Positions 19,152 to 30,912 of a DNA stretch of 64,000 bases are shown in pieces (position 1 is the stretch's first letter; every line of letters starts with the position of its first letter). Source of the stretch: Dictyostelium discoideum (taxonomy: Eukaryota); the NCBI GenBank assembly GCA_000004695.1, contig CM000153.2, positions 2,688,001 through 2,752,000 on the forward strand, given 5' to 3'. The position numbers were made by a program, and so were the translations under genes. The notes under the pieces are model-generated. The model ran no database searches and was not told the DNA's origin. It saw nothing but the letters and a program-made list of their open reading frames with translations.

Positions 19152-20944
19152 CTATACAAAACCAAAACCTTCTGAAGCTTCACCAATTGCAATTTTTAAT
19201 AATTTTTTCAATTGTTCTTGAGATTCATATTCTGGTATATCCAATTGATTGAAACATGTGTGAGCGGTTGGTAATCTGTGAGCATTACCTCTGATTCTAT
19301 GAATTTGGAATTTTTGAGGGCCTCCCATACCACCTAAAGCTTTGAAACCTTCCAAAGGTACTTTACTTGTACCAGTGACAAATTGTAAGAGTGAAGCTTT
19401 TTCTTCATTTGAAAAGTTTGAAACAGTATTCCAGAACCAAAGGATTTGTTGAGAATCGGAAGAGTAACCACTATATTCAGTGTTTGCACGAAGATCATCG
19501 ATATCAATCTCTGGAAGACCACTGATCAATAATTCCAACTCCATTTCATTGAAAATACCAATCAATGATTTTGGAATGAGTTCGTGGAAACCTTCTAAGA
19601 AGCTATTGATTTGATCCTTGATTGAGTTTGTCATTCTAACGGAAGCAACCAAACGAACATATTCTAATTTATTATCTTCAGTGACAGGAATGTTTGCACC
19701 ATTTGGTTTCAATTCGATAACTTTCATGGAATCGAAAATATCGATCTCTGTACTAAATGTGAGTTCCATGACATTGGTGATATCATTATCAAGAATCCAT
19801 AAAAGATTCTTATGATAAGTTGGGTCAATTGCCTCCATATCGCTAACATTGATTGTGAGACCCAACATATGTTTATAGAAACTTCTAGTGAAGAAAGCAT
19901 CCAGCATCAAACCATCATACAATGCCTTACCAATGATTCTTCCAATGAATTTAAAGTAAGATAAATGATCTGGATTGATGTAAGATTCTGGATTTGGTTG
20001 GAAAGTTACATTATCAGAGGCAGATTGTTTAAAGAGAGCATAACCAGGATTAAACATCTCTCTTGATAAAACGAGATACCATTCACGTAATAAACCACCA
20101 GCATCAAGACCTTCTTCACCAGAGAATTGAATATTGAGTTTACCTTTGAGTTCTTCGGCTGGACGCATTCTAAGTTGATTGTAACTGTCCTCAAATATAT
20201 GATTTCTACGAACTTTTAGACGAATTGTACTTGATCTCTCTTTCTTTGATTGGAAGTAGTTTCTAAAGTAAGTTCTCTTATTATCAAAATCTAAGAATCT
20301 AGGAGTTTTAATTAATACTGCTAATGATTCCGATAACAATGAATTATCTTGACGAACGAGATCATTGATCAAATGTTTATTTTGTTCTACAAATTCAAAG
20401 AATCTACTTGTATTATAATCCATTATTGGTGGAGTTCCTGCCAAATTACCATTGCTAGTACTTGCAGACAAACCATTACCAACTGATGAACTAAGTTTTA
20501 ATCCTGCAAGACTTGGTGATGATGGAATCATAGTGGATGATAACATCTCAGAGGTTGGAGAATTTACAAGGAAATAAATTTCAACCAATGGTAATAATAA
20601 TGAATTCATTGGATTGGATCCTGCTTTCTTTTTGCTTGTAAGTTTAAGTTTGGTTATTGGTTCTTTTTCTTCCTTTTCTAAACTAAACAATGTAAGGAAT
20701 GATTTAATTGATCCCCAAAGTATATCTAATTCATGATTATTTGAAAAGTATTCTCCTAATGTCATTGATGGTTGTTCTTTCTTTGTGTTTGTTGTAGTTG
20801 TTGTAGTGGTGGTGGTTGGTGTAGTATTTGAAGTTGATGGTGTTGTAGTACTTGGTGTAGTTTCTGTAGTTGCACTTTCTGTTATAGGTGTAGTTGTAGA
20901 AGCTGCAGGTGAAGTGATTGAGTTAGCAGCTGTAGAAGATGGAG

Positions 20945-21019
<75 letters not shown>

Positions 21020-24000
21020 CAATAATTGGATCAGGTTTCTTTGGATTTAAAATTGATTGAATAGTTTGTAAAACTCTTAAGAAATTATTTTCTTTTGTTG
21101 AAGAAGGAAGATAGTTTTGAGGTGATACATCAGTATCATTAAAGATCTGTTTCATTGATTCCAAATTGTTAATTACATCTTTTGTTAATCTTTTAGCATT
21201 TGTATTTAATTGATCCAAGATGATTTGTCTATTTTCATCACAACTAACGGCAATGGTAACCAACAAACTACCAATCTTTGGATTACCAGCTAACAATGTA
21301 TTGATTAAACTTTCTACTTGTTGGCTTGGAATGAGTGGAATCTTTGGTTTTTCAGTGCTTGTAGAATCGACAATCAACAAGAGAATTGAGATCAATCTTT
21401 CAAGGAGTAAAGATTTTGAAAAGATGTTTTTATCATTCAATGCATCACATAATTTCCAAAGTGGACAGGCCTTTTCGAGGGATGGACTTGTTGAACCAGA
21501 TCCATCATCTTTCTCTTTTCCATGACTATTTTGTGATTGAGTGGAAGGTACGATTGGTTGAGGAGTTAACATCCAATTGACGGTTAAACTATTACCTGTG
21601 GTTAAACTTTGAAGAATATCCAATAATCTCTTAACGACCAATAATGGTGGATGATTTGTCACTTCGAATGATCTAAACATACGGAATCTCATTAATGGGT
21701 GACATGGATCAGTGATTGGTGAGAATTTATCAGATTCAGCGGTTTTTCTTTGGGGTTGTTGAGAAACAATTGATTGGTAACCGGTTAAAATTTGAAGGAT
21801 ATAACATAACAACTCTTCACGATTATCAGAAAATGTGCAAATTTGAACGAGAATACTATTTAATTGTTGTCTATTGATGGATTGATCAAAGTGTAGGATT
21901 TTAATGAGTGCTAATAAATTCTCTTTTTTAACCAAACTACCAGCTTGATTGACTTTCTTTGGTTTTGCAACCTCTTTGAGGATTCTACGTGGTGATGGAA
22001 TACGATTGAAACTATCAGGGATACTTGATCTAAACTCAAATCTTGGTGGATGTGTTTCACGTAATCTTACTGCTTCTGCGTGAAGTTCTGGTGGTAAGGT
22101 TTGAAGGAATGCTTCTGGTTGACTCATTAAAACCTCCTCTCTAAGATCTGGTGGAAGTGTTGCAAGGAAAGATGCATTATCCATATCTTGAACCAAATCT
22201 GTTGGATTGACTGATACTCTTGCTACATTTCTAGCTGCTTGTGATGCCCTACGTTCAGAGATAATTCTTTCTTGTTCTAAAACTTCGTTTTGAATCTCCA
22301 ATGGTAAAGCGCTTAAAAACTCTGGATTGATTGTAATTGGACCATCACCAGTGTTTGATTGGTGAATTGATGTCAATTGAGTTGACAATACCTCTGCTCT
22401 TAATTCTGCTGGTAATGCTGCTAAAAATGTTGGATCAATACCTAAATCAACATTAATTGGTGCTGGTGGAGCTTGGGTTGTTGGTGGATTAGTTGATGTG
22501 GTAGTAGTGGTGGTGGAGGAGGTGGTTGTTGAACTTGTAGTTGTTGAACTTGATGCTTCAGATTCAACTGTTGGTGATGTAGTTGTTGTTGTAGTTGCTG
22601 GTGGTGGGGTGGTTGTAGTTGTAGTAGTTGGTGGTAAATTTGTAGTTTCGGTGATTGATGAAGTTGATGTACCAGATTCTTCAAGTGGTGCATTTTCATT
22701 ATTATTAGTGGTAGTAGTTGACTCATTAGTTGACTCACTAGTTGATTCATTAGAAGTAGTAGTAGTAGTTGACTCATTAGTTGACTTATTAGTTGATTCA
22801 TTAGAAGTAGTAGTTGGTAGTGGTGTATTTACTTCTGTAGAACTTTGTTGAATTGGTGGACTTGTAACTAAAGGTTCAATAGTGAGTGGTTCGATTGGTA
22901 ATGGATCATTTACTGCTGCTGTAATTGTAGGAGAGTTTGTAACAGTCTTTGGAGTTGTTGGTGTAGAAGTAGTTGAAACATCATTTGTTGTTGGTGAAGT
23001 GGTAGTTGTTGCTGCTATTGAATCTGTTATTGAATCTATTTTTGTCTCTGTTGTAGTTATTTCAACTTTTTCAGCTCTTTCTTTTTCTTCCTTTTCTTTT
23101 TGTTGTCTCTTTAATTCTTTTAATTTTTCTTTTTCAGCTTTTTCTTTTGCTCTCAACTCTTCTTTTAATTTCTCTTTTTCAGCTTTTTCTTTTGCTTTTT
23201 GAGCTGCTTCTTCCTCTTTGGTGATTGTAGTTAAAATTTTAATGAGTATTAATTCAAATGATTGAGCATAGGCGACTGATTCATCAGTGTCATTCTTTAA
23301 ACGATTGAAATCAAAGGAGTAAAGATTTCCATCTCTACCAAGTCTCAATCTTGCATTGGAACGAAGATCGAAATTCATTATCATTTGTTCAAATCTTTCC
23401 AAGTTTCTTGTCAATTGACCTGGATCGGATCTAATAAGATCCTCGATACGACCTTCATTTTGACCAAGAGCAACGAGAATATTTGAAAGATTTCTTTCAA
23501 CATTTTCACCTATCCAATTTCTAAGATTTGCATCTGAACCACCTTGTGGCATAGCAAGACGACGATCTCCACCCAAGAAGGCTTGTTCCATCATTGGATT
23601 GAAATTTTGATGAGCACCACGGAAATGATTGATGAGGTGGTGTTGTTGTTGTTGATGGTGTTGTTGTTGTTGAGGGTGGTGATGATGATTTTGATGTTGA
23701 ATATGATTAATGTGATCGATTTGAGCGAATTGTCTTCCTCTTTGTAGATTATCTTCATTGTTACTATCATCATCCTCTTCATCATCATCGTCATCATCAT
23801 CGTCATCGTCATCATCATCATCGACATCATTTTGATCATCTTCAGAGGATGATGAACTTCCATCACTATCATTGGTATTTTCAACTTCCTCTTCTTCGTC
23901 ATCAGAATCTTGTTCATCATTGATGATTGCATCATCAATTTGACCATCCATACCATTTTCAATAACCATTTCAATGTCTTCACCATCTTCACCATCACTA

Positions 24001-29916: not shown

Positions 29917-30590
29917 TTAATAAAACTAAAAAAATAAAACTAAAAATAAAAATAAGATACATACTTTTGTGTCCTCTTTACAAAGTGAAAGTGGATGTAA
30001 ATGATCTTCATTAAATCCACTTGAAATTATAGATAATTTAGGAATAATAGTTTGAATGAATGATGAATTATCTTTTACAAATTTCTTTTTACTAAATAAA
30101 ACATTAAAAAATTTAAACAACTCAATTAAAATATCATAATCTGGGAATGTAAATAATGAATTTAGTTCCTTTTATAAAAAAAAAAAATTAGAATAATTTT
30201 AAAAGATGGCTTTTTCTTAAAAAAAAAACTTACATCCGAGGAATTAAAAAGGTTACTATTAATACAATTTCTAAGAAGAGACCTTGTGAACTTTATAATT
30301 AAAATAATAAACTCTTTATCATTTGGAAAATCTGGGTTATTATCGACATTTAATATACATGGTGGTGATGTATTACTTGAGGATGATGTTGATAATGTTG
30401 TATTAGATGATGATGCTGATGATGAAGATGATGATGTTGATGATGATGCTGCTGATGATATTGGGTTTGTCGACTTTCCTGAGGATGATGGTGTTGGATG
30501 GTATTTTGTAACTATTTTTCCTATTATAGAATCAAATCTTTCTAAAACATCAACCCAATGATTGAAATCATCCTTTTTTTTTAAAAAAAA

Positions 30591-30621
<31 letters not shown>

Positions 30622-30912
30622 TATTAATATTAATAAATTTCAAATTAAACTTTATATTTAACTTACTGTTTTGCCAAATGGCCATTCCTTAAACTTTAAT
30701 AAAATATTTTTAAGTTGTTCTTCGGGACAGTGCACTAATGTTTCTATAAAATTTTTTTCTTCTGTTATCTGAGAGTAAAGAAAAGAGAGAAAAAAAAAAA
30801 AATAATAAAAAGTAAATAAATGTTAAAAAAAAAAAAGAAATAAAAATAAAAAAATAAAAAAAAATTCGTAAGTACTTACAATTTTATAAACCTTTGAAAG
30901 TTTCCCCTTCAT
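19152..30912 (-). CDS. HUWE1/Tom1-type giant HECT E3 ubiquitin-protein ligase, 5 exons and about 3,790 aa.
   Basis: complement(join(19152..29852,29965..30168,30234..30572,30667..30768,30880..30912)). The donors are GTAAGT (30879), GTAAGT (30666), GTAAGT (30233) and GTATGT (29964). Exon 1 is [11 protein letters not shown]. Exon 2 is [34 protein letters not shown] (human HUWE1 [22 protein letters not shown]). Exon 3 begins [21 protein letters not shown] (human [20 protein letters not shown]). The C-terminus is a canonical HECT domain (...[40 protein letters not shown]). A UBA domain sits at about 26425-26545 ([41 protein letters not shown]). There is a long D/E acidic block (~23760-24060), two K/E-rich coiled segments, a 24-residue poly-Q (~20950-21015) and a (TN)15 run (~24960-25050). 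Confidence 0.9.

Follow-up and report, generated by a model that had tools for sequence, protein, structure and literature searches.

A five-exon gene model for the HUWE1-type HECT ubiquitin ligase of Dictyostelium discoideum and the conservation of its 5′ introns in dictyostelids

HUWE1-family ligases and the D. discoideum locus

HUWE1-family ubiquitin ligases are pan-eukaryotic, and the BH3 motif, through which Mcl-1 is bound, is a feature of the vertebrate lineage. Human HUWE1 (Mule/ARF-BP1; PDB entries 7JQ9, 7MWD, and 9PLQ) has 4374 amino acids (aa) and carries, in this order, DUF908, DUF913, UBA, an acidic stretch, UBM, and a C-terminal HECT domain. In the 2013 HECT survey of Grau-Bove et al., the HUWE1-like ligases, including yeast Tom1 and plant UPL1/UPL2, make up class VI; the amoebozoan proteins were assigned to the HUWE1 family proper rather than to the fungal or plant ones, and they carry DUF908-DUF913-UBA-DUF4414, “the complete arrangement (except WWE)” (PMC3673628). 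Here, we analyzed a member of this family located in a stretch of 64,000 nucleotides (nt) of Dictyostelium discoideum DNA (GenBank assembly GCA_000004695.1, contig CM000153.2, positions 2,688,001 to 2,752,000 of the forward strand). We refer to this whole stretch as the window and count all positions from its first letter; the gene occupies 19152-30912 on the minus strand. A literature search on Dictyostelium HUWE1 and the neighboring DDB_G identifiers found no dedicated study.

We put the probability at about 0.93 that one intact protein-coding gene with five exons occupies this locus and encodes a 3792-residue orthologue of HUWE1 (animals), Tom1 (yeast), and UPL1/2 (plants). The encoded protein has the domain order of human HUWE1, with a marginal UBA-like segment at the place of UBA, and the HTCFN catalytic loop and a Phe at position −4 are common to both proteins. 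Their N-termini, with about 25 to 30% identity, align from residue ~20 and share the HWVD(L/V)L(D/E)RFD block. The D. discoideum protein differs from the human one in its length (3792 versus 4374 aa), in its Dictyostelium-type low-complexity inserts (Ser/Thr runs, (TN)15, and Q24), and in the WWE domain, for which no Pfam match at E ≤ 0.01 was found in the spliced protein, as published for amoebozoan members (PMC3673628). With yeast Tom1 and plant UPL1/UPL2 it shares the DUF908-DUF913-DUF4414(UBM)-HECT architecture and the acidic region, and fungal full-length homologues (3400 to 4100 aa) align with the spliced N-terminus from their first residues. It is an ordinary, already known orthologue of a well-known family, and the significance of the model is mostly one of annotation hygiene, amoebozoan members with the same architecture having been catalogued before (PMC3673628). 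The useful outcome is a well-supported 5′ structure for the D. discoideum orthologue, with four 5′ introns conserved across dictyostelids; a further outcome is that the C. fasciculata record is shown to split the gene. No new biological question is opened.

A program-made list of open reading frames (ORFs) contains a 10.4-kb minus-strand ORF of 3477 aa at 19152-29585, which starts with TTG. A preliminary description, made from the sequence alone, had argued that this 10.4-kb ORF is not the whole gene and that its frame continues upstream to a splice acceptor. Both features are seen in the sequence: the frame is open up to an AG acceptor at 29854-29853, with a TAA (29858-29856) one codon before the AG and a long poly-T tract preceding it, and the first Met inside the large exon so delimited lies at 29483, 123 codons downstream of the exon start. 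Joining five minus-strand exons in phase 0, each with a length divisible by three, yields a reading frame of 3792 codons plus one terminal stop (coding sequence of 11,379 nt) and no internal stop. The GC content is 5 to 14% in the four introns versus 22 to 33% in the exons (23% in the window overall), and all acceptors are AG after an A/T-rich tract. Retention of any single intron leads to a stop or a frameshift.

Exon 1 (30880-30912; 33 nt, 11 residues) begins with an ATG at 30912-30910 in an AAAATG context. An in-frame stop lies 5 codons upstream, and within 30780-31800 this is the only ATG with a frame open to a GT donor that fits the phase of exon 2. The GTAAGT after 30880, which is the conserved exon-1 donor, opens intron 1 (30769-30879; 111 nt, GTAAGT...CAG, 14% GC), whose retention would introduce an in-frame stop. 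Exon 2 (30667-30768; 102 nt, aa 12-45, ...LVHCPEEQL...EWPFGKT) aligns with human HUWE1 21-49 and, because it contains no Met, needs exon 1. Intron 2 (30573-30666; 94 nt, GTAAGT...AAG, 5% GC) would give stops and a frameshift if retained. Exon 3 (30234-30572; 339 nt, aa 46-158) encodes a conserved 14-residue block, a Ser/Thr-rich insert, and the start of DUF908; it is followed by intron 3 (30169-30233; 65 nt, GTAAGT...AAG, 14% GC; frameshift if retained) and by exon 4 (29965-30168; 204 nt, aa 159-226), in which DUF908 continues. Intron 4 (29853-29964; 112 nt, GTATGT...poly-T...AAAAG, 6% GC) leads into exon 5 (19152-29852; 10,701 nt, aa 227-3792 plus the stop), an unbroken reading frame in which a scan for hidden in-frame introns revealed no AT-rich GTAAGT-type segment. 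All in-frame single-junction alternatives were enumerated, and none combined a good donor with cross-species conservation; all alternative first exons were enumerated as well, and none had signals or conservation matching those of the proposed sites.

Homology and conservation of the spliced N-terminus

Four independent lines of evidence, namely, profile matches, solved structures, wider homologues, and comparative gene structure, indicate that the spliced N-terminus is real, and its signal is well beyond chance. In the profile analysis, the peptide of exons 1 to 4 alone (226 residues) matched positions 2-95 of DUF908 with an E value of 1.5e-16, whereas exon 5 alone matched only positions 139-358, and in the product starting at Met 29483 (3444 aa) the DUF908 match was gone altogether. 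A full-length DUF908 is thus obtained only with exons 3 and 4, which supports the spliced N-terminus as real; besides profile positions 2-95, exons 1 to 4 supply the helices that precede DUF908. The proposal of the preliminary description that the upstream exons restore the HUWE1 N-terminal DUF908 region agrees with this result, since the profile is matched over positions 2-358 of 358 only when the exons are spliced.

That description had also called for a comparison of the spliced N-terminus with HUWE1/Tom1. In a phmmer search against PDB sequences, residues 21-66, 82-220, and 224-437 of human HUWE1 were collinear with residues 17-63, 123-256, and 297-511 of the model, an alignment (7JQ9/9PLQ) that spans three of the four junctions (2, 3, and 4). 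The 14-residue block of exon 3 aligned with the 13-residue block of human HUWE1 to which it had been likened. Along similar lines, residues 19-71 of the Nematocida HUWE1 (7NH1) matched model residues 16-69. Among 1.84 billion representatives, a full HMMER scan found 151 homologues, many of them HECT proteins of 3400 to 4100 aa with their first residues aligned to the first residues of the model; the best (P0001) is from C. fasciculata, with 42% identity. In a MAFFT alignment of 17 of the homologues, those from other eukaryotes begin within a few residues of the model start, and no junction has a gap, except that exon 3 has, just inside it, a single extra residue that is shared with the closest relative. 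Homologue searches of a word index, for which the spliced N-terminus and the DUF913 region served as queries, gave no matches.

The comparative gene structure comes from two other dictyostelids. In D. purpureum (GL871253.1), the first four exons measure 33, 102, 285, and 204 nt, and the four introns lie at identical codon boundaries, all in phase 0; in C. fasciculata (GL883010.1), they measure 36, 102, 381, and 207 nt, and the first four introns again lie at identical codon boundaries, all in phase 0. Exon 1 reads MKGKQTKVYKV followed by GTAAGT in D. purpureum and MKLKSTVKTYKV followed by GTAAGT in C. fasciculata, the position of intron 1 being common to the three species. Exon 2 has 102 nt in all three, with protein identities of 65% (D. 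purpureum) and 50% (C. fasciculata), and across the exons protein identity to D. discoideum ranges from 40 to 73% in the former and from 34 to 50% in the latter. Intron lengths vary among the three species, and the low-complexity inserts of both orthologues have other lengths than those of D. discoideum. Both the family assignment and the splice junctions of the preliminary description are supported: its four small exons join in phase 0, carry canonical signals, and have the same boundaries in two related species.

With tblastn, the D. purpureum orthologue was found at L005:1-8675 (minus strand), on the upstream side of the syntenic Sel1 gene, with its ATG at 8675 and the large exon running from 7667 downward, divergent from Sel1 as in the window. 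The gene table of the D. purpureum record has no called gene over the orthologue, which may reflect an annotation gap or an omission from the table.

If the gene started inside the large exon, at Met 29483 or at the TTG of the ORF list, the upstream “exons” would be chance open stretches in the promoter region. The ORF list, in which only 19152-29585 appears, agrees with such a start. However, chance stretches would not be expected to encode a peptide that by itself matches DUF908 at the E value given above and aligns with the N-termini of human and Nematocida HUWE1, nor to show conservation in both D. purpureum and C. fasciculata, down to the intron sites. The Met-29483 product, moreover, loses DUF908 entirely, and public gene calls are of ca. 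3800 aa and not 3444 (see below). We consider a start inside the large exon to be effectively refuted and give it next to no probability.

The C. fasciculata locus (L002:10001-21456) is annotated as two genes, of 370 and 2967 aa. This record speaks for a division of the locus into a small DUF908 gene (exons 1 to 4 together with some of exon 5) and a large DUF913-HECT gene. Against it, the C. fasciculata exon-5 frame is open for 929 codons, with homology continuing past the false donor (ca. L002:11280) used by the 370-aa model, and the end of that model is nonhomologous. In D. discoideum, the frame is free of stops from 29852 to 19152, a single DUF908 match spans exons 3 to 5, and the assemblies described below call one product of ca. 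3800 aa. Two separate genes are accordingly a most improbable arrangement, and the C. fasciculata annotation divides what is one gene.

The single five-exon gene has one junction for which we found possible traces farther afield. In a distant homologue from a Logan assembly (SRR30452384; L006:285-1259, a prokaryote-style ORF call), a 69-nt in-frame insert, GTAAAT...CCAG, immediately follows the counterpart of the final codon in D. discoideum exon 3, at the site of intron 3 (30169-30233). Another homologue (P0063) ends just past the intron-3-equivalent point. The coincidence of the insert and of this end with the homologous boundary suggests that the phase-0 intron 3 site is old.

Gene calls in other assemblies and points against the model

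According to the gene tables of three further D. discoideum assemblies, the product adjoining the DDB_G0284967 orthologue has 3782 aa (GCA_054883475.1), 3809 aa (GCA_054859355.1), and 3818 aa (GCA_054859385.1). These lengths are incompatible with a model restricted to exon 5 (≤3444 aa) and compatible with five exons plus variation in repeat length. With called products of ca. 3800 aa, the N-terminus is not truncated in these three assemblies. The expectation of the preliminary description that annotation would miss the small 5′ exons therefore does not apply to D. discoideum, although it does to C. fasciculata, where the gene is split. The five-exon model is clearly an annotation correction for C. 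fasciculata and possibly one for D. purpureum.

Much of the length variation can be located. Over the 3′ ca. 3200 codons, GCA_054859355.1 and GCA_054859385.1 differ from the window by ca. 25 indels and 50 substitutions, the indels lying in low-complexity tracts, all but a few single-residue ones. In both assemblies, (TN)15 is 25 residues shorter and the poly-Q run is 22 to 26 residues longer, and in one of them a second His/Gln tract has 16 additional Q. The low-complexity tracts are hypervariable within D. discoideum. In GCA_054883475.1 (CM142510.1), the protein is identical over window positions 19152-28791.

This identity bears on whether one or more junctions might be slightly different from those proposed here. 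The GCA_054883475.1 call is 10 aa shorter in spite of it, and in-frame alternatives do exist, GTTTAT after 30892 as the exon-1 donor (−4 aa) and GTACTT/30734 (−10 aa). The latter, the sole single-junction alternative that gives −10 aa, uses poor signals (GTACTT...TTAG), and the alternative donors are weak. The proposed GTAAGT/GTATGT sites, on the other hand, are at precisely the positions of the orthologous junctions in D. purpureum and C. fasciculata, the homologue alignments have no gap at the junctions, and the low-complexity tracts vary between strains, so that a 10-codon repeat difference is equally plausible. We therefore regard a shifted junction as quite improbable, less so than the two readings rejected above.

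Several points weigh against the five-exon model. The evidence for the junctions consists of sequence signals, homology, and conservation. The 10-residue deficit of the GCA_054883475.1 call must lie in 28792-30912, and it may be either a repeat-length difference or the product of a slightly different model. The UBA-like segment falls under the Pfam threshold, and the catalytic activity and the substrates are inferred by analogy with known members of the family. The exact 3792-aa sequence was absent from the protein collection, and no protein search, the full HMMER scan included, returned a self-match or near-self match; the D. discoideum reference protein was not among the matches, and the absence from the collection is uninformative. 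The Met-29483 model likewise had no exact match in the collection.

It seems rather unlikely that the AX4/dictyBase model differs at its 5′ end, a reading for which the absence of the exact 3792-aa product from the collection and the 3782-aa call could speak, and that the sharp differences in (TN)15 and poly-Q between the laboratory-strain allele and two other assemblies affect the ligase. Should the reference differ at the 5′ end, the five-exon model would amount to a small annotation correction.

Domains of the protein and neighboring genes

From the N-terminus onward, the spliced protein contains N-terminal helices, DUF908, DUF913, a UBA-like segment, an acidic block, UBM repeats, and HECT, all encoded on the minus strand. 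DUF908 (29196-30320; aa 130-445, exons 3, 4, and 5) matches Pfam PF06012 with an E value of 1.8e-47, and the best stretch of DUF913 (28041-28646; aa 629-830) matches PF06025 with an E value of 1.7e-30. The UBA-like segment (26409-26531; aa 1334-1374) scored 16.5 bits with Pfam UBA_7, for which the cut-off is 27; its best PDB match is the UBA domain of HUWE1 itself (2EKK; E = 0.011), and it stands in the expected position. The UBA domain listed in the preliminary description is therefore marginal, and of the domains that it proposed to verify with HMMER, DUF908, DUF913, and HECT were recovered, whereas UBA remained under threshold.

The (TN)15 dipeptide run (24972-25061; aa 1824-1853), the acidic D/E block (23751-24080; aa 2151-2260, with 68 D/E in 110 residues), and the poly-Q run of 24 (20946-21017; aa 3172-3195) are all present as first described. 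Between the last two lie the repeats of UBM, formerly DUF4414 (22053-22442), with 3 to 4 copies of FLxxLPx(E/D)(L/I) and three stretches matching Pfam PF14377 (E = 2.8e-22); four FLxxLPxE/D motifs were counted at aa 2702-2820. The HECT catalytic domain (19158-20072; aa 3487-3791) is canonical, as had been stated, matching positions 2-305 of 306 of PF00632 with an E value of 1.3e-103. By sequence motif, the catalytic residue is Cys3759 (19254-19256) within HTCFN, and the C-terminus reads ...EGFGFV.

By analogy with characterized members of the family, the armadillo-like repeats of DUF908 and DUF913 would form a large alpha-solenoid scaffold that presents UBA, UBM, and the acidic stretch, as the parts binding substrate or ubiquitin, toward the C-terminal HECT domain. 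HECT would then accept ubiquitin from an E2, forming a thioester at Cys3759, and pass it to lysines of the bound substrates, which, as for Tom1 and HUWE1, are likely to be unassembled basic proteins, for instance histones and ribosomal proteins. Exons 1 to 4 are predicted to encode the first helical repeats of the solenoid scaffold, so a model starting inside the large exon would lack its beginning.

As for the surroundings of the gene, the ORF at 16245-18791 (minus strand) is identical to D. discoideum AX4 DDB_G0284967 (XP_639960.1), which places the ligase gene in a well-annotated model organism, and neighboring ORFs include those of Sel1-repeat, leucine carboxyl methyltransferase-like (LCM), exocyst Sec3, and five-LIM-domain proteins. 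Synteny around the gene (window 6192-28791) is conserved: downstream of HECT, both D. discoideum and C. fasciculata have genes for AMP-binding, zf-HIT, and OPA3 proteins, and upstream of it, both D. discoideum and D. purpureum have Sel1 and LCM genes. A homologue search with Sel1 returned only D. purpureum. Unlike DDB_G0284967, the exact ATG-to-stop translations of 31814-33577 (Sel1-repeat), 34034-35623 (LCM-like), 3906-5567 (five-LIM), and 6222-7769 (a protein without assigned family) were absent from the protein collection; these four ORFs may belong to spliced genes or may merely be missing from the collection. For a 158-aa ORF upstream of the gene, there was no exact product on record.

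The 900-nt intergenic region before the Sel1 ATG (31814) contains, at 31589-31606 on the plus strand, ATG ATA TCA TAT TTT TGG followed by GTAAGT. As an extra Sel1 exon, this segment was rejected, in-frame joining being blocked by a TAA at 31784-31786; the GTAAGT after 31606 may be the donor of an intron in the 5′ untranslated region or a chance occurrence. In the Sec3 ORF (40470-42530, minus strand), the match to Sec3_CC already starts at the second residue, with profile position 20, and the N-terminal PH-like part is missing; the Sec3 gene, too, probably has upstream exons.

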